Shown: positions 11,667 to 58,251, counted from the first letter of the stretch. The stretch: DNA of 64,000 nucleotides from Parcubacteria group bacterium Gr01-1014_30 (GCA_007376185.1 VMFS01000003.1:25983-89982); one strand, 5' to 3'. A program made the numbers and translations. The notes: generated from the sequence alone by a model not told the origin.

Positions 11667-12579
11667 CCAACAAGATTTAGAAAAAAATATCCCCTTGGTA
11701 ACAAGGAAAGATTACCAAAGAGAGGTAAAAGCAGGACTCGTTGAGTTCGGAAAAGAAAAAATAGTGGTGATAGCCGGCCCCTGCACCATAGAAAGCAAGA
11801 CGCAAGTAATGGAAATTGCCAAAGCCGTGAAAGATGCGGGAGCTAAAATGCTGCGAGGCGGAGCTTTCAAGCCCTTAACTTTTCCTTATGGCGACCCTTT
11901 GGCTCAGCCAGATTCTAACAGCGGTCAGCCATCTGTTGACCGGCTGAAAGTGTTGACTAAAAAAGAGCAAATGGAGTCAGCCGAAAAAAGGTTGTCTTAT
12001 CTGGCTGAAGCCGGAGCAAAGTATGGGTTGCCAGTGGTGGCGGAAATCATTTACGCCGATTCTGTAGCGATGATGGAAAAGTACGTTGATATGTTTCAAG
12101 TAGGATACCGCCATATGTGGAATATGGATTTGATTGACGCTCTTTCAAAGACCAAAAAGCCATTGCTGCTGAAGCGTCATTACGGAGAAAGTTTGAGGTC
12201 GCTATTGGGCGTGGCAGAGCATTATGAGGCGAGAAACAAGCATAATTTTGCTTTTGTGGAAAGGGGCGTGGCGGTTCCTCACACGCACAATCCGCAATCA
12301 AGAGCAGTTATTGACATTCAGGCGATTCCTGCTTTGAAAGAATTCGCGCCTTCAGTTCCCGTGATTGTTGACCCGAGCCACTCAACTTTTAAGCGGATTT
12401 ATGTGAGTTCTGTGGCAAGGGCAGCCATTGCAGCCGGAGCTGACGGGCTTTTGATTGACATACATCCAGAACCCGAAAAGGCATGGGTTGACCCTTTGCA
12501 GGCGCTGGATTTTAAGGCCTTTGAAAAATTGATGACGGAAATTGAGGGGATAGCAAAAGTTTTGGGAAAGACAATATGA
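11653..12579 (+). CDS. Divergent class I-beta DAHP synthase / KDO8P synthase family aldolase
   Basis: [27 protein letters not shown] and [13 protein letters not shown] are conserved. Canonical KPRTSPY is KPLTFPY, and QIGARNMQN is QVGYRHMWN. There is an extra ~40-aa segment after [10 protein letters not shown]. Confidence 0.65.
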
Positions 12580-12590
12580 GTTTGATGGTA

Positions 12591-12778
12591 GCTCGGCGGT
12601 AAAGTTCCCGTTCGCCGTCCCTCAAAAATCGATCGTCAGCGAAGATGAAGAAGAGATTTATCTCTTCTGACTCCCAGCGAGATTTTGGGGTCTGCGCTCT
12701 CGCGCCGCCATTCCGCCCTCAAGCGGAAACCTTGCTGGCGGCGCTCCGAGAGCCGTCCGGAAACTTCACCGCCTCGCT
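12591..12778. mobile_element. MITE-like GC-rich element with ~20-nt imperfect terminal inverted repeats
   Basis: Ends are gctcggcggtaaagttcccg and ccggaaacttcaccgcctcgc (about 16/20 complementary). Central hairpin agaagaga-ttta-tctcttct. Fills the 12580-12784 intergenic gap. Confidence 0.55.
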
Positions 12779-12784
12779 TAAAAT

Positions 12785-13546
12785 ATGCCTAAAGTATCCA
12801 TCATAGTTAGAACAAAGAACGAAGAAAAGTGGATAGGCGAGTGTTTGAGAGCGGTTTTCGGCCAGAAGTTTAAGGGGTTCGCTGAAACTTCGTCTCCTTT
12901 CACTCCCGCAGGGGCGAGAAGAGAACGAAGTTCTCTGCGAGCGCCTCTCTCTGTTTCACAGAGTTCGGCTTTTGAAGTTGTTGTTGTTGATAACGGGAGC
13001 TTTGACAAAACGTTGGATATCGCGAAAAAATTTCCGGTGAAAATCGTTCATCACAAAGGTAAAGCTTGGTTTCCCGGAAGGTCAATTAACGCCGGAATCA
13101 GAAATTCGTCCGGAAAGTACATTGCTTTGCTTTCGGGACACTGCGTTCCTGTAAACAATAGTTGGCTTAGCGATTTAGTGAGGGAAGTAAAAGCTCCAAA
13201 AATTGCTGGAGTCTACGGCAGGCAACTCCCTTTGCCAGAAAGTTCACCCTTGGACAAGCAGGATTTATTGATGTTTTTCGGCAAAGACCCATTAATTCAA
13301 ACAAAAGGACACTTCTTTTATTTTGACAACGCAAATTGCGTTATCAAAAGGTCGGTTTGGGAGAAAATTCCCTTTGACGCAAAAATTAGGCACAAAGAAA
13401 ACATTATTTGGGGCAGAAAAGTTGTTCAAAGAGGATACAAAATTGTTTACACTCCCAAAGCAAAAGTTTATCACTGGCACGGAATAAATCACGCAGGAAA
13501 TATAAAAAGAGCCAAAGAAGTGGTTAAAGTGCTGGAAAAATTATGA
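12785..13546 (+). CDS. Family 2 glycosyltransferase carrying an in-frame palindromic insert
   Basis: VSIIVRTKNEEKWIGECLRAVFGQ...EVVVVDNGSFDKT is a GT2 N-terminus. A 30-aa foreign segment interrupts it. Confidence 0.75.
   Translation: MPKVSIIVRTKNEEKWIGECLRAVFGQKFKGFAETSSPFTPAGARRERSSLRAPLSVSQSSAFEVVVVDNGSFDKTLDIAKKFPVKIVHHKGKAWFPGRSINAGIRNSSGKYIALLSGHCVPVNNSWLSDLVREVKAPKIAGVYGRQLPLPESSPLDKQDLLMFFGKDPLIQTKGHFFYFDNANCVIKRSVWEKIPFDAKIRHKENIIWGRKVVQRGYKIVYTPKAKVYHWHGINHAGNIKRAKEVVKVLEKL
12881..12970 (+). repeat. In-frame GC-rich palindromic module (90 nt, 30 codons)
   Basis: Encodes AETSSPFTPAGARRERSSLRAPLSVSQSSA between KFKGF and EVVVVDNGS. Arms gaaacttcgtctc / gagaacgaagttctc. Hairpin ctctg-tttca-cagag. 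Confidence 0.7.
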
Positions 13547-21396: not shown

Positions 21397-22883
21397 AGCA
21401 TCAGCTCAATGTTTTCAAAACGGAGTTAAGGGAAAGAGGTCTATTTTATGCTTTGAAAAAGGCAGTGCTTTATTTATTGCGGCCAATTACCGATTTAATG
21501 AAGACAAGCACATTTTTGGTAAACTTGCGGTATGGAGTTTTGCCTAATCTGTTATCAAAAATCACGTTTCATCAAGATAATCTGCTACTAAAACTCCCGC
21601 AAACCGATTTAGTTCGCGCCGTGCGGAACTTTTGGTATGGAAGTATTCTCGACAGGTTTGTTCTTGAAGGAGAGGAAATTAAAAAAGAAGAAATTTTTAC
21701 TTACGGAGGACCTAACCCCGAATTTAGTTGCCCAATTTGCCAAAAGGCAGAGTGGGTGTCAAGAATCAGACAAGAAAATTTATTTTTAGATCATTCTTGT
21801 CCAAGTTCTGAAAAATGCAGGAAATTGTGCGAAAAGCAAGGCAATGATTTATGGACTCACTTTCACCAGAATTTTGATTTTTCTTTGGGTTGCTCCGCTG
21901 ACTTGCCGGCTCCCAAAGGCGTTTACGTCCTTTTTGGGAAACTGGATATGTTTCACGCTCTTCGTTTGGAACCAATGGAGAGAATTTTTCATCGCCAATT
22001 TGCTTTTGCTTGTCAGCTTGATATAGCAGAAGGGCCTTTTGGCATTGACTGGAAAAAATATGATTTTATGTTTATGTATCTTCCGGGAGCCGTGCCCAAA
22101 TTTAAACGTCCACCAATTCCAGTAATTCTTTTCGCTCACGATTTTTGGCGAGAACCCAAAGCCAGTCAGTGGGTATTGGACTGGTTGGAGCCAGAGGTCT
22201 TTTTAACTACTTACCCAACTCAATTTAAAGAAAATTATCGTTTTCCAAAAAATACCAAAGTTGTATTTCACCCCATGTTTACGTCAAATTTCTTTACCAG
22301 ACCCAATCTTTCTCAAAAATCAATTGATTTGCTTTCAGTGGGGAACACCAAGGGGCCTCTTTATCAAGGAAGGAGAAACTTGAATATGCAATTGCAAAAA
22401 TTTAAAGAACAATACCCCTCATATAAACTTGAATTTTCGCACATTGTGGGCACTCTTAAGCCGAATGAGCAAGAGGGACTTGAATACACCGATTCTCAAG
22501 GCAACCAAATAAGATATTTAAATAAATGGTCAGAATACTTGGGAACTGCAAAATATGTTATTTTCGGCAAAATGAAATATCCTATTTTGGTCGGTAAATA
22601 TTACGAAACCTTGGGGTCTGGCGCCATACCCATTTTCCCTGAAGTGCCCGACTTGAAACTTTTGGGAGTAAAACCCTTTGAACACTATATTCCCTTAGCT
22701 GAAATTGAAGGAAATTCAGAAAGATTAAAATATTTTTTAGATAATTACGAAAAATTCAAGTATATTGGCAAAAATGCGGTAAAATGGTATAAAGATAATT
22801 CAGATAAGATGCTTTTTGCCGGTTTTGAGGGCTCAATTAGAGAAGTTACCAATTATAAATTTCCAAAAAGATTAGTTCGCTGA
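21393..22883 (+). CDS. Hypothetical protein with C-terminal GT-B-like (CgeB-type) region; its stop codon is supplied by a repeat module
   Basis: C-terminal KYYETLGSGAIPIFPEVPDL...FEHYIPL. The TGA at 22881-22883 lies inside gttcgctgaaacttcgtttcctctc. Confidence 0.4.
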   Translation: MKHQLNVFKTELRERGLFYALKKAVLYLLRPITDLMKTSTFLVNLRYGVLPNLLSKITFHQDNLLLKLPQTDLVRAVRNFWYGSILDRFVLEGEEIKKEEIFTYGGPNPEFSCPICQKAEWVSRIRQENLFLDHSCPSSEKCRKLCEKQGNDLWTHFHQNFDFSLGCSADLPAPKGVYVLFGKLDMFHALRLEPMERIFHRQFAFACQLDIAEGPFGIDWKKYDFMFMYLPGAVPKFKRPPIPVILFAHDFWREPKASQWVLDWLEPEVFLTTYPTQFKENYRFPKNTKVVFHPMFTSNFFTRPNLSQKSIDLLSVGNTKGPLYQGRRNLNMQLQKFKEQYPSYKLEFSHIVGTLKPNEQEGLEYTDSQGNQIRYLNKWSEYLGTAKYVIFGKMKYPILVGKYYETLGSGAIPIFPEVPDLKLLGVKPFEHYIPLAEIEGNSERLKYFLDNYEKFKYIGKNAVKWYKDNSDKMLFAGFEGSIREVTNYKFPKRLVR

Positions 22884-22921
22884 AACTTCGTTTCCTCTCA
22901 CGTTTAGTTTCGCTTAGCAAA
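22875..22921 (+). repeat. Copy of the GTTCGCTGAAACTTCGTYTCCT module at a gene end
   Basis: gttcgctgaaacttcgtttcctctc is nearly identical to 12877-12901, which is read through in frame there. Confidence 0.7.
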
Positions 22922-25106: not shown

Positions 25107-25153
25107 CTTCGAAATAGTCAGAAGAGATAAATCTCTTCCTTATTTTCGCTAAC
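25106..25153 (-). repeat. Copy of the AGCGAAGATAAGGAAGAGATTTATCTCTTC hairpin core (reverse orientation)
   Basis: gcttcgaaatagtcagaagagataaatctcttccttattttcgctaac is the reverse complement of the cores at 12635-12681 and 44851-44900. Confidence 0.7.
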
Positions 25154-25162
25154 ACTTGATAA

Positions 25163-28377: not shown

Positions 28378-29265
28378 ATGTTGACCATTTTTACAACAAC
28401 AAAGCCATCAATAGGAGAAATTGGCTTCATTCAGAGAAATGCGATTAATAGCTGGCGGTTGTTGAGGCCCAAGCCACAGATACTTTTATTTGACAACGAA
28501 AAGGGCGCAAAAAAACTGGCAAAAGACCTTAAAATAACTCACGTTCCGGAGGTTCGAAAAAACGAATACGGCACGCCGCTGGTTAGAGATATTTTTGAGA
28601 AGGCTCAAAGTTTGGCCAAGAACAGGATTTTGGCGTATGTTAACGCCGACATTATTTTAATGCAGGATTTTATGGAGGCGATTTCAAGGATAAAGTTTGA
28701 TAAATTTGTTCTTGTCGGCCAGAGAAGGGACATTGACATCAAAAAGAATATAAGATTTCAGAAAGGCTGGCGGGAAAAGTTACGCAAGATTGTTGCCAAA
28801 GAAAGCAAGCTTCACGGGCCTTCAGGCATAGATTATTTTGTTTTCCCAAAAGGTTTTTTTTCAAACATACCTAATTTTGCTTTGGGGAGAACTCTTTGGG
28901 ACAACTGGTTTTTGTACAAAGCTTGGATTTCGGGCGCTACTTTGATAGACGCGACCGAAGTTATAACGGCCATTCACCAAAATCACAAAGTTCACCTGCC
29001 CCGAGGGCATAAAAAAAACGTCTGGAAGGGACCTGAAGCTAAAATGAATCAAACGTTAGCCGGCGGGCTATCTCGCGCTTTCACAATCAGGGACTGCTCC
29101 AAACTTTTGACAAAAGAAGGTTTAGAAAATCCCAAGGTCGATTTTTACAGAATCTTTTCCGCGCCTTTCCGTTACTACGACAAGCTGCCAGCTTTAAAGC
29201 CGTTTTTGTTCTTTGGCTGGCTAGTTTTCTTAATATGGCGAAAAATAAAGATAATCAAAACTTAA
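28378..29265 (+). CDS. Hypothetical, possible GT-A-like glycosyltransferase with C-terminal TM helix
   Basis: TIFTTTKPSIGEIGFIQRNAINSW...AYVNADIIL pattern. C-terminal hydrophobic LFFGWLVFLIW. Confidence 0.35.
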   Translation: MLTIFTTTKPSIGEIGFIQRNAINSWRLLRPKPQILLFDNEKGAKKLAKDLKITHVPEVRKNEYGTPLVRDIFEKAQSLAKNRILAYVNADIILMQDFMEAISRIKFDKFVLVGQRRDIDIKKNIRFQKGWREKLRKIVAKESKLHGPSGIDYFVFPKGFFSNIPNFALGRTLWDNWFLYKAWISGATLIDATEVITAIHQNHKVHLPRGHKKNVWKGPEAKMNQTLAGGLSRAFTIRDCSKLLTKEGLENPKVDFYRIFSAPFRYYDKLPALKPFLFFGWLVFLIWRKIKIIKT

Positions 29266-30926
29266 TCAGGATAGGTTTGGCTCAAATAAACTGCACTGTC
29301 GGCGACTTGGAAGGAAATTTCCAAAAAATTAAAGCGTGGATAAAAAAAGCCGAGGATCTTAACCTTGACGTTATCGCTTTTCCTGAGCTTGCAATAACCG
29401 GTTACCCGCCAGAAGACCTTTTGCTCAAACCCAGATTTATCCAAGACAACTTGAAAAAAATAAGAGAGCTAGCACCTTTTGTTAAAAAAACAGCGGCCAT
29501 TGTGGGATTTGTTGATAAAGAAGGAAGTCACATATATAACTCCGCCGCCTTAATCAAAGGAGGAAAAATAGTTGGAGTTTATCGTAAAATGTGTTTGCCA
29601 AACTACGGCGTATTTGACGAAAAGCGTTATTTTCTGCCGGGGCAGAAGCTTTTGGTTTTCAAAATAGGGAAAATTACAGCTGGAATAAATATCTGTGAGG
29701 ACATCTGGGAAGAATCTGGCCCCACAAGGGCGCTGGGCAAAAGGGGGACAAAAATAGTGTTTACCATCAATGGGTCCCCATACCACCAAGGTAAAATTAG
29801 ACAAAGAGAAGAAATAGTTAAAGATCAAGCTAAAGCAAACAAAATTGCAGTAGTTTACATCAATTTGGTAGGTGGCCAAGATGAGTTGGTTTTTGACGGT
29901 CAGAGCATGGTAGTGGATAGTAAGGGTTTAGTGGTCTCGAGAGCCAAAGCGTTTGTGGAAGAGTTGCTGGTGGTGGAAATAGATGCAACGGGTTCTAAAT
30001 TAAAATTTAAAAGTTCAAAATTGGAATCTCTTTTTTTGGAAGAAGAAGTATATAAAGCGTTATTGCTCGGCTTGGGAGATTATGTGAGGAAAAACGGTTT
30101 CAAAAAAGTGGTAGTTGGGCTTTCTGGCGGGATTGATTCATCTTTGGTAGCAACTTTGGCTGTTGACGCTTTGGGCAAAGATAACGTCACTGGAGTAGTT
30201 ATGCCTTCAAGGTTTTCTTCTCTTTTATCAAAAGAAGACGCAGAAAGTTTAGCTAAAAATTTGAGAATTAAATTAATGATAGTTTCTATTGAACCAATTT
30301 TCAAAGCTTACTTGGAAACCTTAAATCCACAAATTCAAGATTTGGAGCAGGATATAGCTATGGAGAACATTCAAGCTAGGATCCGCGGCAACATTTTAAT
30401 GGCTTTTTCCAATAAATTTAACTGGCTGGTTTTGACCACCGGGAACAAATCAGAGATGAGTGTGGGTTATGCCACCCTTTATGGAGATATGGCTGGAGGT
30501 TTCGCGCCCATCAAAGATATTCCCAAAACTTTGGTCTACAAGCTTGCAAGATACAGAAACTCGCTTGCCGAGCCCGTGACGGCGAGGCGGGAGAGGTTAG
30601 CAGAACATTCAGCGACCTCAAGAGTCATACCGGAAAGTGTGCTAGTAAAGGAACCATCGGCCGAGCTGAGGTTAAACCAAAAAGACAGAGATTCTCTGCC
30701 GCCTTACGAAATCTTAGACCCTATCTTGAAGTTATACGTTGAACAGGATTTAGGCGTTGATCGGATTTTGAAGTTGGGTTTTGAGAAAGAGGTTGTTTCA
30801 AAGGTTGCAGGAATGGTTGACAAATCAGAATATAAGAGAAGGCAGTCGCCTCCTGGCATCAAAATCACTCCCAAGGCTTTTGGCAAAGACCGAAGAGTGC
30901 CAATTACCAACAAGTATGGAAAATAA
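29235..30926 (+). CDS. nadE: Glutamine-dependent NAD+ synthetase carrying an in-frame insert
   Basis: N-terminal CN-hydrolase domain (IGLAQINCTVGD, FPELAITGYPPEDL). PP-loop VVGLSGGIDSS. KEPSAEL. Confidence 0.85.
   Translation: MAKNKDNQNLIRIGLAQINCTVGDLEGNFQKIKAWIKKAEDLNLDVIAFPELAITGYPPEDLLLKPRFIQDNLKKIRELAPFVKKTAAIVGFVDKEGSHIYNSAALIKGGKIVGVYRKMCLPNYGVFDEKRYFLPGQKLLVFKIGKITAGINICEDIWEESGPTRALGKRGTKIVFTINGSPYHQGKIRQREEIVKDQAKANKIAVVYINLVGGQDELVFDGQSMVVDSKGLVVSRAKAFVEELLVVEIDATGSKLKFKSSKLESLFLEEEVYKALLLGLGDYVRKNGFKKVVVGLSGGIDSSLVATLAVDALGKDNVTGVVMPSRFSSLLSKEDAESLAKNLRIKLMIVSIEPIFKAYLETLNPQIQDLEQDIAMENIQARIRGNILMAFSNKFNWLVLTTGNKSEMSVGYATLYGDMAGGFAPIKDIPKTLVYKLARYRNSLAEPVTARRERLAEHSATSRVIPESVLVKEPSAELRLNQKDRDSLPPYEILDPILKLYVEQDLGVDRILKLGFEKEVVSKVAGMVDKSEYKRRQSPPGIKITPKAFGKDRRVPITNKYGK
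30561..30620 (+). repeat. In-frame GC-rich palindromic module (~60 nt)
   Basis: Encodes SLAEPVTARRERLAEHSATS between LARYRN and RVIPESV. Stem cgcttgccg / cggcgaggcg. Boundaries are approximate. Confidence 0.5.
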
Positions 30927-39543: not shown

Positions 39544-39605
39544 GCTCGCTGAGACTTCGTCTCCTCTCGCACACTGCGCTCGCTTGCGTGAGCGAAGATA
39601 AGAAC
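39544..39605 (+). repeat. 62-nt palindromic module flanked by a ~43-47-bp duplication of the GT2 gene start
   Basis: gctcgctgagacttcgtctcctctcgcacactgcgctcgcttgcgtgagcgaagataagaac. Flanks 39515-39543 and 39624-39652 are a 29-nt direct repeat with 1 mismatch. Confidence 0.75.
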
Positions 39606-44719: not shown

Positions 44720-45091
44720 GGGGACAGGACTCAAACTAGAGTCACCTTGAGAAGCGAAAAAAATGAGATGATTTCAAGGCGCAACGACGCAGGCGCACTA
44801 GCGAAAGCGGATGCGTCAAGGAGGAGCAACGCAGAAATCAGCCATCGAGCGTTAGCGAAGATAAGGAAGAGATTTATCTCTTCCGACATTTTTTCGCTTC
44901 CCCCAAGGGCGGGCAAATTAGGACAATCTTCTTCGTTGTTCCGATTCCTTCGGAATCGAGAATCCTCGACAGCTTCGCTGTCGGGACTCGTCGTTAGCGT
45001 ATCTCGTTCCGCAGATACGCTCAGCTCCTCGCGCCTATAATCTTGCCCTAATTCGCTCCGCTCAAGTGATTCTATCTTGAGTCCTATCCCC
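44720..45091. mobile_element. 372-bp non-coding MITE-like element with ~31-nt terminal inverted repeats
   Basis: Left end ggggacaggactcaaactagagtcaccttgag. Right end ctcaagtgattctatcttgagtcctatcccc. The interior is a chain of short hairpins (gattccttcggaatc, cgacagcttcgctgtcg, agcgtatctcgttccgcagatacgct) plus the gaagagatttatctcttc core. Confidence 0.6.
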
Positions 45092-46344: not shown

Positions 46345-46417
46345 ACCCCGTAATACAACTTCCAGCACGCTTCGCGTGCAAAATCGCTGAAAGCGACTGG
46401 AAGATGATATACGGGGT
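46345..46417 (+). repeat. Y-shaped structured repeat, copy 1 (candidate ncRNA / REP-like element)
   Basis: accccgta-atacaa-cttccag-[cacgc ttc gcgtg]-caaaa-[tcgct gaa agcga]-ctggaag-atgata-tacggggt. Confidence 0.7.
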
Positions 46418-46425
46418 AAATAAAC

Positions 46426-52039: not shown

Positions 52040-52205
52040 CCATTTGTGGTAATACAACTTTCAGAAGACGAAGCCAACTTTCGTCTCCGGAAGTGGTACA
52101 ACCACGTTCCTTGTAAAGATTGGTGCGGGGCAAGCGGGGAAACCTGTGGGTTTCTAGGTCGGGAGTTTCCGCTCCGCGGAAAACTCTCGCGACCCGACCG
52201 ACCCC
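52040..52205 (+). repeat. Cluster of degenerate palindromic modules in the murB leader
   Basis: ggtaatacaactttcag...ccggaagtggtacaacc resembles the Y-repeat. Also gaaacc-tgtg-ggtttc. Nested hairpin ggtcggg-[agtttccgc tcc gcggaaaact]-ctcgcga-cccgacc. Confidence 0.45.
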
Positions 52206-52213
52206 CTTCCGAT

Positions 52214-55439: not shown

Positions 55440-55511
55440 ACCCCGTAATACAACTTTCGGCGCGCTAAAGCGCAAAATCGCCGAAGGCGACCGAAAGATG
55501 ATATACGAGGT
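55440..55511 (+). repeat. Y-shaped structured repeat, copy 2
   Basis: accccgta-atacaa-ctttcgg-[gcgc...gcgc]-aaaa-[tcgcc gaa ggcga]-ccgaaag-atgata-tacgaggt. Confidence 0.7.
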
Positions 55512-55527
55512 ATTGACTTAAATTTTG

Positions 55528-55886: not shown

Positions 55887-57125
55887 ATGAAAAAGTATTT
55901 TTTACTTTTGTTGATTTTAGCCATATTTTTGGTTCTTTATTTTTGGCCTTTTCCTGGAGTTCAAAAGCCAGCAGAGCCAGCCTTGGAGACGGAAGTTACG
56001 GACCAAATAACCGTTGATGAAGTTGAAGAACCAGATGAAGGTGAAGAGTCGGAAGGTCTTGAGGTGGTCGCCCGAGAACTGCAAATTCCTTGGGAAATAG
56101 CTTTCCTGCCTGCGCCTGACCGCCTGTCTGCGCAGGCAGGCGCAGGCAGGCAGGAAGGTTTGCCTGATGGCACTTTACTGGCAACCGAAAGGCCGGGAAA
56201 CTTGGCAGTTATTCGTGACGGAAAGGTCGTTAGTCGCATTGCGGTTTCCGGCGTTTACCACAGCGGCGAAGGGGGCTTGCTAGGCATGGCTTTGCATCCA
56301 GATTTCAGGGAGAACAAATTTTTGTATCTCTATTTCACATACAGGGAAGGCAGCCAAACCAAAAACAAAGTGGAGAGATATATTTTTGACGGCGACATTT
56401 TGTCAGACAGAAAAATTATTATTGACAACATTCCGGGAGCTGCAAATCACAACGGCGGCAGAATCGCTTTCGGGCCAGACAGCTACTTATATATAACTAC
56501 TGGAGACGCGCAGGCGCCTAATTTGGCGCAGAACATCAATTCGCTTGCCGGAAAGGTTTTGCGTTTAAGAGACGATGGTTCCATTCCCGAGGACAACCCC
56601 TTTGCTTCGGCCGGCTCAGCACAAGCTGACGCGGTTTGGTCTTTTGGCTATCGCAATCCGCAAGGCCTGGCGTGGGACCAAGCAGGGAGGTTATGGAGCA
56701 CAGAGCACGGCCCTTCTTCTTTGGTGTTGCCGAATTGCTGCCAGGACGAGGTTAATTTGATTGAGAAAGGAGCTAACTACGGCTGGCCAGATAGTGTTGG
56801 AGGTAAAGTAAAAGCAGGAACTATGGCGTCAAAACTGCATTCAGGCGGCGACACTTGGGCGCCATCTGGCGCGGCATACTATAACGGCTCTTTGTTTTTT
56901 GGCGGCCTAAGAGGCCAGAGTTTATATGAGGTGGTTTTACAGGGAGAGGAAGTTGTTGAATTAAAGAGACACTTTAAAGGAGAGTTCGGGCGGATCCGGG
57001 GGGTTTCTCTGGAGCCTGACGGTTTTTTGTACATTATCACTTCCAACAAAGACGGCAGAGGCGTTCCCCAAGCCGACGACGACAAGATAATTCGACTGAA
57101 CCCCAAACTCATCTTTAGTTATTAA
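55887..57125 (+). CDS. PQQ-dependent soluble sugar (glucose/sorbosone) dehydrogenase-like beta-propeller, membrane anchored, with an in-frame insert
   Basis: LGMALHPDF...YLYFTY, NHNGGRIAFGPDSYLYITTGD, GYRNPQGLAWD, GANYGWP. N-terminal TM helix plus an acidic linker. Confidence 0.75.
   Translation: MKKYFLLLLILAIFLVLYFWPFPGVQKPAEPALETEVTDQITVDEVEEPDEGEESEGLEVVARELQIPWEIAFLPAPDRLSAQAGAGRQEGLPDGTLLATERPGNLAVIRDGKVVSRIAVSGVYHSGEGGLLGMALHPDFRENKFLYLYFTYREGSQTKNKVERYIFDGDILSDRKIIIDNIPGAANHNGGRIAFGPDSYLYITTGDAQAPNLAQNINSLAGKVLRLRDDGSIPEDNPFASAGSAQADAVWSFGYRNPQGLAWDQAGRLWSTEHGPSSLVLPNCCQDEVNLIEKGANYGWPDSVGGKVKAGTMASKLHSGGDTWAPSGAAYYNGSLFFGGLRGQSLYEVVLQGEEVVELKRHFKGEFGRIRGVSLEPDGFLYIITSNKDGRGVPQADDDKIIRLNPKLIFSY
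56109..56162 (+). repeat. In-frame GC-rich palindromic module (54 nt, 18 codons)
   Basis: Encodes PAPDRLSAQAGAGRQEGL between IAFL and PDGTLLATER. Arms cctgcctgcgc / gcgcaggcagg. Confidence 0.75.
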
Positions 57126-57592: not shown

Positions 57593-58177
57593 ATGGTTTT
57601 AACCGAGTCGGTTCAAAAATTAAAGAAGGGAGACAAGGCGCCGGATTTTTCTTTGAAAGGCGTTGACGACAAAATATACTCTTTGAAGGACTTTGAAGGC
57701 CTGCCTGCCCCCCTGCGCGGTCAGGCGCAGGCAGGCAAACAAGGCCTTTTGGTTATATTTATGTGTAACCACTGCCCTTACGTGAGAGCGAAACTGCCGG
57801 TCATTGCCGAGCTTTACAAAAAGTGGGGTACTAGGATTTCTTTTTGCGGCATCAACAGCAATGACTCTGGATACGAAGGCGAAGGCATGGACAATATGAA
57901 GGTTTTTGCCAAAGAGAGAGCAATTGCTTTTCCTTACTTGTTTGACACACTTCAAGATGTTGCCAAGGCCTATGGAGCAACTTGTACTCCCGACCCGTTT
58001 TTATTCAATAAAAATTCTGAACTGGTTTTCCACGGACGAATTGACGACGCCACGGGCCCGGGCGAGACGGCCAAAGAGAAGACCATGGACGAGAATATCT
58101 CAAAAATGCTTTCAGGCCAAGAAATTTCTGACGAGTTCAAACCGTCAATGGGATGCTCCATTAAGTGGACCCCGTAA
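57593..58177 (+). CDS. Thioredoxin-fold (redoxin-like) protein with an in-frame insert; its stop codon lies inside a repeat
   Basis: KAPDFSLKGVDDKIYSLKDFEG...LLVIFMCNHCPYV (CxxC). The TAA at 58175-58177 lies within ccccgTAAtac of Y-repeat copy 3. Confidence 0.65.
   Translation: MVLTESVQKLKKGDKAPDFSLKGVDDKIYSLKDFEGLPAPLRGQAQAGKQGLLVIFMCNHCPYVRAKLPVIAELYKKWGTRISFCGINSNDSGYEGEGMDNMKVFAKERAIAFPYLFDTLQDVAKAYGATCTPDPFLFNKNSELVFHGRIDDATGPGETAKEKTMDENISKMLSGQEISDEFKPSMGCSIKWTP
57701..57745 (-). repeat. In-frame palindromic module (45 nt, 15 codons), same family as 56109-56162 but in opposite orientation
   Basis: The reverse complement tgcctgcctgcgcctgaccgcgcag matches tcctgcctgcgcctgaccgcctgtctgcgcag of the other copy. 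Encodes LPAPLRGQAQAGKQG. Confidence 0.7.
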
Positions 58178-58248
58178 TACAACTTTCGGTGTGTTCTTGA
58201 AAAGAACACAATTATCGCCGCAGGCGACCGAAAGATGATATACGGGGT
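58169..58248 (+). repeat. Y-shaped structured repeat, copy 3
   Basis: accccgta-atacaa-ctttcgg-[tgtgttctt gaaa agaacaca]-attat-[tcgcc gca ggcga]-ccgaaag-atgata-tacggggt. It exactly fills the gap between two convergent genes. Confidence 0.7.
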
Positions 58249-58251
58249 GGA

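Follow-up and report, generated by a model that had tools for sequence, protein, structure and literature searches.

The nadE gene of a groundwater Parcubacteria genome, Parcubacteria group bacterium Gr01-1014_30, carries a 51-nt GC-rich segment that interrupts its reading frame nowhere and that 114 of its 120 best homologues lack. The gene lies in a stretch of 64,000 nt, referred to here as the window, which spans positions 26023-90022 of a 180,739-bp contig. With a probability of roughly 0.6, we take the segment to be a recent and tolerated single-copy in-frame insertion, its source unassigned, in a permissive loop of the encoded glutamine-dependent NAD+ synthetase (NadE), where it is probably a tolerated passenger.

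The insertion in nadE and its orthologues

29235..30926, + strand: nadE, 563-aa open reading frame (ORF) for glutamine-dependent NAD+ synthetase (ORF list, Pfam, PDB match, identity to P0001)
30552..30560, + strand: conserved YRN at the end of helix 431-443, directly 5' of the loop, with N442 invariant (alignment A1, AlphaFold2 secondary structure)
30567..30617, + strand: the insertion proper, 51 nt, encoding AEPVTARRERLAEHSAT, residues 445-461 (syntenic orthologue L001; absent from 114 of 120 homologues)
30624..30668, + strand: conserved VIPE...KEPSAEL block, 3' of the loop (alignment A1; alignments to 4f4h, 5kha and 3n05)

The NadE query was aligned with its 120 best homologues using MAFFT. 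In 114 of them, exactly 26 residues make up the stretch KLAxYRN to (S/T)AEL, compared with 43 in the query. These homologues have a loop of the minimal form ...YRNSLxxVIPE..., which is also true of the four closest relatives (67-73% identity). The closest, P0002 (73% identity), is encoded on a contig, L001, whose gene order is the same as that of the window, namely a 296-aa gene, nadE, a UDP-glucose dehydrogenase gene and an RGP-family gene. The junction reads AAC TCC CTT / TCA GTT GTT ATA CCT in L001 and AAC TCG CTT (GCCGAG...GCGACC) TCA AGA GTC ATA CCG in the window. Across six syntenic genes with about 1,900 aligned residues, this 51-nt gap is the sole indel larger than 3 aa relative to L001. 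The insert is an open frame, its length is a multiple of three and it has no in-frame stop codons. No flanking direct repeat that could represent a target-site duplication was found when the junctions CTT/GCC...ACC/TCA were compared with CTT/TCA in the orthologue.

The initial annotation had placed a GC-rich in-frame insert in this conserved housekeeping enzyme at 30561-30620, encoding SLAEPVTARRERLAEHSATS between LARYRN and VIPE...KEPSAEL. That peptide is indeed read in the frame of ORF 29235-30926, and the strings quoted for it fall at 30562-30570 (cgcttgccg), 30571-30579 (agcccgtga) and 30580-30589 (cggcgaggcg). The insert is lineage-specific, the ORF is intact and the flanking invariant motifs are untouched. 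Its extent of 20 aa has to be shortened to 17 aa (51 nt) on comparison with the orthologues, S443, L444 and S462 being ancestral codons.

The composition of the insert sets it apart from its gene. The GC content is 0.67 (0.80 in the first 30 nt) compared with 0.41 for the gene, and the local maximum of 0.725 in 40 nt stands at the 99.9th percentile of the window. At third codon positions, the GC content is 0.71 in the insert and 0.40 in the rest of nadE. The synonymous codon choice of the insert falls in the lowest 2% of 17-codon windows drawn from the genes of the window. This composition points to a gain of foreign DNA, that is, to an acquired piece rather than an old loop that drifted slowly.

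We consider it highly improbable that the long loop represents the ancestral state, lost by deletion in the relatives, or that the segment lies outside the protein as an assembly artefact or a stretch bypassed in translation. Loop length varies across the NadE family, as described below, and 51 nt is close to the 50-nt gap of T4 gene 60. An ancestral long loop is nevertheless difficult to reconcile with the minimal loop shared by most close homologues, including the closest four, and the foreign composition favours gain. A translational bypass element was rejected, as the length is a multiple of three, an in-frame stop is found neither within the insert nor after the take-off codon, and the take-off and landing codons are unmatched (CTT before the insert, ACC as the last insert codon). 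The identical NadE protein is recorded on three contigs of different sources (NCBI, ENA and Logan), which makes an assembly artefact unlikely.

Judging from its sequence, ORF 29235-30926 encodes a glutamine-dependent NadE in which the conserved motifs are intact. The Pfam domains are an N-terminal CN_hydrolase (PF00795, 1.4e-34), which is the glutaminase, and a C-terminal NAD_synthase (PF02540, 1.2e-79) with the PP-loop. The best solved relatives are 4f4h, 5kha and 3n05, with 4f4h matching residues 11-561 at E=4.6e-147. The protein is 100% identical to P0001, deposited under the name of the same organism on the 180,739-bp contig; the public annotation of P0001 (549 aa) starts 14 codons further in, at TTG 29277. 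SGGxDS and the other invariant columns of alignment A1 are kept, and in the VIPE...KEPSAEL block the invariant residues are P466, P474, A476, E477 and L478.

The loop as a site of length variation

In the AlphaFold2 model of NadE, whose mean predicted local distance difference test score (pLDDT) is 81.6, residues 431-443 (KTLVYKLARYRN) are helical, the stretch 447-461 is modelled as coil at a pLDDT under 50, and a short helix (467-471) comes next. The flanks are of higher confidence. We propose that one recent 51-bp insertion took place in frame at the Leu444/Ser codon junction of nadE, in the short connection that leads from helix 431-443 to the VIPE...PSAEL segment of the NAD-synthetase domain. 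The insert would be translated through, and the 17 added residues, which are chiefly charged or small, are predicted to make a flexible excursion. With the catalytic motifs on both sides intact, the insert would persist as a neutral or nearly neutral passenger. Judging from the alignment and from the description of tbNadE and hsNadE (PMC6946656), it would lie outside the mobile P2 loop, some twelve residues N-terminal to the conserved Glu in front of that loop.

Loop length was measured between ...YRNSL and VIPE in 150 representatives whose mutual identity is at most 50%, with the following distribution:

2-4 residues: 122 of 150 representatives
8 residues: 9 of 150 representatives
11 residues: 8 of 150 representatives
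15, 16 and 20 residues: 1 representative each of 150

The loop of the query has 19 residues, and only one of the 150 representatives has a loop that is as long or longer. Among the solved structures, 4f4h and 3n05 have several extra residues at the loop relative to the minimal form. A variable-length loop of similar size and composition in unrelated taxa would, by the initial annotation, have counted against its reading. This is partly the case, as the loop is indeed variable in unrelated taxa, yet a length similar to that of the query is rare there.

Rare insertions of at least 5 residues among the 120 close homologues are found in three places, namely a loop at about residues 142-146 in the glutaminase domain, the interdomain linker and the junction occupied by the insert. 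The 444/Ser site is the sole one of the three in the synthetase core and has the largest inserts. By this comparison, the loop appears to be the most permissive site of the synthetase core of NadE and the main place where a change of length is tolerated. Presence and absence among orthologues, a stop-free insertion in frame and a permissive site are all found for the NadE insert. Any tolerated indel would be expected to show them just as much.

Insertions recur at this junction in at least three separate gains, each with its own sequence. The inserts of other lineages, at exactly the same codon junction, are unrelated to that of the query:

L002:3613-3708: insert of P0042, 84 nt, consisting of two direct copies of the A8...T8 terminator-like palindrome AAAAAAAACCGCAGGTGCA(T/G)TTTTTTT
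L003:3133-3192: insert of P0086, 42 nt, with the adjacent 7-bp-stem hairpins TCCGCCA-N7-TGGCGGA and CCCGCCA-N7-TGGCGGG
L004:11366-11407: insert of P0043, 24 nt, with CTTGGCGGA in common with L003

The P0086 and P0043 inserts have a 9-mer in common and may be one event. The L003 insert folds strongly as DNA (z = -4.65, with none of 200 shuffles as good). It would seem that hairpin- or repeat-bearing DNA repeatedly arrived or survived at this junction, which fits strong filtering for a permissive site. The recurrence may reflect small hairpin elements or slippage-prone sequence.

Hairpins, copies and the origin of the insert

30562..30589, + strand: imperfect inverted repeat CGCTTGCCG / loop AGCCCGTGA / CGGCGAGGCG, left arm overlapping the ancestral Ser-Leu codons (sequence, folds)
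30593..30619, + strand: second weak hairpin GAGGT...ACCTC, right arm overlapping the ancestral Ser codon (fold output)

The initial annotation described the insert as palindromic. An inverted repeat beyond chance could not be confirmed, the DNA fold being near that of shuffled sequences and only the RNA fold somewhat better. The first stem (arms 30562-30570 and 30580-30589) can be paired at 9 positions, but only by admitting a bulge and a G·T pair. For the DNA fold, z is -0.8 to -1.0, with 29-37 of 200 shuffles equally good; for comparison, the element in an SGDH-like gene of the window, described below, gave -4.5, which none of its 200 shuffles equalled. When the window was scanned simply for hairpins with stems of 8 bp or more and no more than one mismatch, 162 came up, and the NadE stem was not among them. 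Rfam covariance models applied to 30300-30900 found nothing relevant, the one match being a chance hit to a long non-coding RNA at 14 bits against a gathering score of 40. A scan for terminators and promoters likewise gave nothing relevant, the single terminator-like call at the site being a weak minus-strand consensus match at 30575-30557. It is one of five calls in the 2-kb region, compared with 2.1 ± 1.4 expected from shuffles. The NadE insert is only weakly palindromic, and not demonstrably so.

The insert might have been made locally, by template switching or microhomology copying of nearby nadE pieces, with filler, into the loop. Several short matches agree with such a process. GCCGAGC, at the start of the insert, and GAGGTTA, further in, recur with order and frame preserved in GCCGAGCTGAGGTTA (30660-30674), the PSAEL-RL codons 93 nt downstream, while AGAACATTCA of the insert recurs upstream at 30364-30373, in the ENIQAR codons. 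In both weak hairpins one arm consists of ancestral flanking codons. The 300-nt flanks on either side cover 25 of the 51 nt of the insert with 7-mers, compared with about 10.5 expected (p = 0.04-0.07). Set against other contexts and shuffles, coverage reaches p = 0.04-0.09 at best. This coverage test is, however, marginal and post hoc, with p = 0.09-0.48 at other settings; the flanking sequence offers no template for the GC-rich core of 19 nt, CCGTGACGGCGAGGCGGGA, and a GC content of 0.67 is hard to draw from a neighbourhood of 0.41. Local templating is a weak lead, and we regard it as quite improbable.

A second question is whether the insert belongs to a dispersed family. The initial annotation had counted it among modules that occur in several genes and called for a genome-wide repeat search. 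That search was run on 81.2 kb of the contig, consisting of the window extended with L101 and L102, and blastn-short found no second copy there. Within the 64-kb window, the other matches of the insert were at best 10-11 nt long, the top one (11 nt) at E of about 0.8, which is the chance level. Three further collections were scanned, in which only exact matches are detected. A 21-mer matched genome_contigs twice, in a Caulobacter ABC-type ATPase gene and in a Verrucomicrobiota hydrolase-like gene. Neither was accepted as a copy. The Caulobacter match lies in an unrelated GC-rich gene and was judged to be chance, as was the Verrucomicrobiota match, which extends to 27 of 28 nt yet lies in an unrelated GC-rich coding region. 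A 24-mer from the insert had 0 matches in metagenome_contigs, and two scans of viral_contigs also gave 0 matches. The four open frames of the insert were searched against 5.8 billion proteins and nothing was returned; the expected self-match P0001 was missed too, therefore this empty short-peptide search says nothing about copies. The query, a composite of 104 residues, has 23 identical consecutive residues in common with P0001, a pair to which local phmmer gave E = 0.028. As far as 81 kb of the contig shows, the NadE insert is single-copy.

The contig does hold a family of in-frame palindromic elements, of the form GCCTGCC...GGCAGGC, which has members on two other metagenome contigs as well:

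56103-56165: element in the SGDH-like gene (55887-57125), CCTGCCTGCGCCTGACCGCCTGTCTGCGCAGGCAGGCGCAGGCAGG, encoding LPAPDRLSAQAGAGRQEG
57699-57736: element in the thioredoxin-like gene (57593-58177), GCCTGCCTGCCCCCCTGCGCGGTCAGGCGCAGGCAGGC, encoding LPAPLRGQAQAG
L039:610-672: element interrupting a DHFR gene in Hainich groundwater (0.1-µm sample), encoding LPAPDRALRAGGQTG
L019:3395-3440: family element encoding ...GGQAQAG...

The consensus of the family is CCTGCCTGCGCCTGACCGC...GCGCAGGCAGG. The stems are 12-15 bp, and the DNA folds of the SGDH and thioredoxin copies have z values of -4.5 and -2.2, respectively. The family inserts are extra relative to the solved homologues 2ism and 8f09. Where 2ism reads through ...AFLPDG..., the SGDH-like gene has 18 extra codons with YTGCCT at both ends, and solved DHFRs lack the element found in L039. 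LPAP(D/L)R... is encoded by three of the copies, and GQAQAG is common to the thioredoxin and L019 copies. A metagenome scan with the 19-mer shared by the family gave 94 matches, for the most part due to chance; the two convincing members, L039 and L019, are both on contigs of moderate GC content (0.46 and 0.52). An nhmmer model built from the 4 copies recovers both copies in the window (E = 1.8e-12 and 2.4e-10) and misses the NadE insert, even with the threshold relaxed to E<=1000. Aligned pairwise with family members, the insert gave p = 0.09-0.16.

The insert could be a decayed or divergent copy of a mobile palindromic element, of the class of Rickettsia palindromic elements (RPEs) or of the "LPAPDR" elements above, that landed in frame and was let survive by the permissive loop. 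We consider this unlikely. The two in-frame GC-rich palindromic copies on the same contig, in the SGDH-like and thioredoxin-like genes, and the copy that interrupts a DHFR gene in another groundwater metagenome are in its favour. So are the similar size of the insert and the family elements (51 compared with 36-70 nt), their GC excess, the two weak hairpins, the unrelated repeat-containing inserts at the same NadE junction in L002 and L003, and a marginal match to the left arm of the family (CTCGCTTGCC-GAGCCCGTGACGGCG compared with CTCGCCTGCCTGCGCC--TGACCGCG). This origin is opposed by the lack of a second copy in 81 kb, the silence of the family model, the non-significant pairwise similarity, a DNA hairpin equal to shuffles and the failure to find a flanking direct repeat. 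In addition, part of the apparent left arm consists of the ancestral Ser-Leu codons and therefore cannot belong to an inserted element. The NadE insert cannot be assigned to any repeat family, the palindromic family of its own contig included, and the modules of the initial annotation cannot be extended to it, given that it has no copies, no match to the family hidden Markov model and no significant palindromy as DNA. The SGDH-like, thioredoxin-like and DHFR genes support in-frame palindromic spread; NadE does not yet.

A broader form of this idea is that the NadE insert is a degenerate member of an undescribed class of GC-rich hairpin elements, in Patescibacteria and neighbouring groundwater lineages, which insert in frame into conserved enzymes as RPEs do, with the NadE loop as a recurrent landing or survival site. 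Such a site would explain the independent repeat- or hairpin-bearing inserts at one junction in at least three lineages. The proposal is doubtful at present.

Several points weigh against our preferred reading of the insert as a tolerated single-copy insertion of unassigned source. The copy search covered 81 kb of one 181-kb contig, and the scanned genome collection is without the source metagenome-assembled genome. The RNA fold of the insert somewhat beats that of shuffles (z = -2.5, with 2 of 200 equally good). The likeness to the left arm of the family, marginal as it is, extends over 20 of 26 columns (p about 0.1). An element origin is made plausible by the genuine palindromic elements that the contig carries in frame, as these resemble the insert in size and GC content. 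Lastly, the putative surface exposure of the insert draws on a low-confidence segment of the model together with the variability of the loop.

Other repeats and GC islands were noted in the window. An intergenic element of about 75 nt with inverted ends ACCCCGTAATACAACTT...AAGATGATATACGGGGT is present in three copies (46345-46418, 55440-55512 and 58169-58249), two of which are directly 3' of gene ends; it could be a terminator-like or a MITE-like (miniature inverted-repeat transposable element) repeat. The repeat ATCGATCGTCAGCGAAGATGAAGAAGAGATTTATCTCTTCTGAC, which contains a hairpin, has three mostly intergenic copies (12628-12672, 25112-25160 in inverted orientation, and 44844-44892). Three copies of GTTCGCTGAAACTTCGTCTCCTTTCAC also lie mostly in intergenic gaps (12877-12903, 22875-22901 and 39544-39570). 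A non-coding GC island of 111 nt (12669-12779, peak GC 0.75) in the gap 12579-12785 is strongly GC-rich and palindromic, and the N-terminal GC island of S9 is a Lys/Ala-rich extension. A palindrome at the "N terminus" of MurB (52157-52213) was rejected as an in-frame module. The true start is probably Met57 in the 375-aa ORF as called, which places the palindrome 5' of the gene, in intergenic DNA, and suggests that the annotated MurB start is too early.

Comparison with known elements and significance

The closest parallels to the NadE insert are the other indels of the same loop, such as those of the Burkholderia (4f4h) and Streptomyces (3n05) enzymes, which occupy the same position. The extra loop residues of other taxa, for example AAAEYGQPD, AAAERGQTPP and the 8- and 11-residue classes, are often rich in Ala, Glu, Arg and Gly. 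Unlike these, the insert makes a loop of 19 residues, is absent from close relatives and consists of DNA of foreign composition.

Mitochondrial GC clusters, the yeast "byp" elements and the gap of T4 gene 60 are either multi-copy or skipped by the ribosome with the help of stops and matched take-off and landing codons. The NadE insert is similar in being about 50 nt long and GC-rich in a gene of an AT-rich genome. It differs from the byp elements and the T4 gap in that it is open, in frame and without bypass signals.

RPEs are repeat elements that lie in frame in unrelated metabolic genes (review PMC10969869). Like them, the NadE insert is a short, stop-free, in-frame piece in a conserved enzyme of an AT-rich reduced genome, and its site is one that the fold is predicted to accommodate. 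RPEs are, however, longer (about 150 bp), are repeated many times in each genome and form families whose peptide is conserved, whereas the 51 bp in nadE occur once in the 81 kb covered and lack convincing palindromy. The GCCTGCC family (LPAP(D/L)R...AQAG) shares with the insert a high GC content and an in-frame position in a conserved domain in an AT-rich Parcubacteria genome, but it has recognisable copies and strong palindromy. This family resembles RPEs and looks more novel than the NadE insert. Repetitive extragenic palindromic (REP) sequences, their REPIN arrangements and bacterial MITEs are also short dispersible hairpin DNA, and the L003 insert at the NadE junction, with its two inverted hairpin units, has a REPIN-like layout. 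REPs are extragenic, high-copy and dependent on the RAYT transposase, in contrast to the intragenic NadE insert. REPs often carry a GTAG or CGTC tag (PMC3733652). Neither a high copy number nor such a tag nor a RAYT transposase was seen for the NadE insert, the proteins scanned being part of those of the window.

In Rickettsia, tiny hairpin elements are well documented to spread in frame into housekeeping enzymes; a literature search for tiny in-frame hairpin elements in housekeeping enzymes of the Candidate Phyla Radiation returned no report. Taken alone, the NadE insert is an ordinary case of a loop insertion that one lineage tolerates. The site that it marks, which appears to be the most permissive one in the synthetase core of NadE, would be useful for protein engineering or tagging. 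If the insert were an in-frame palindromic element after all, such elements would contribute to the variation of protein length in very small genomes.

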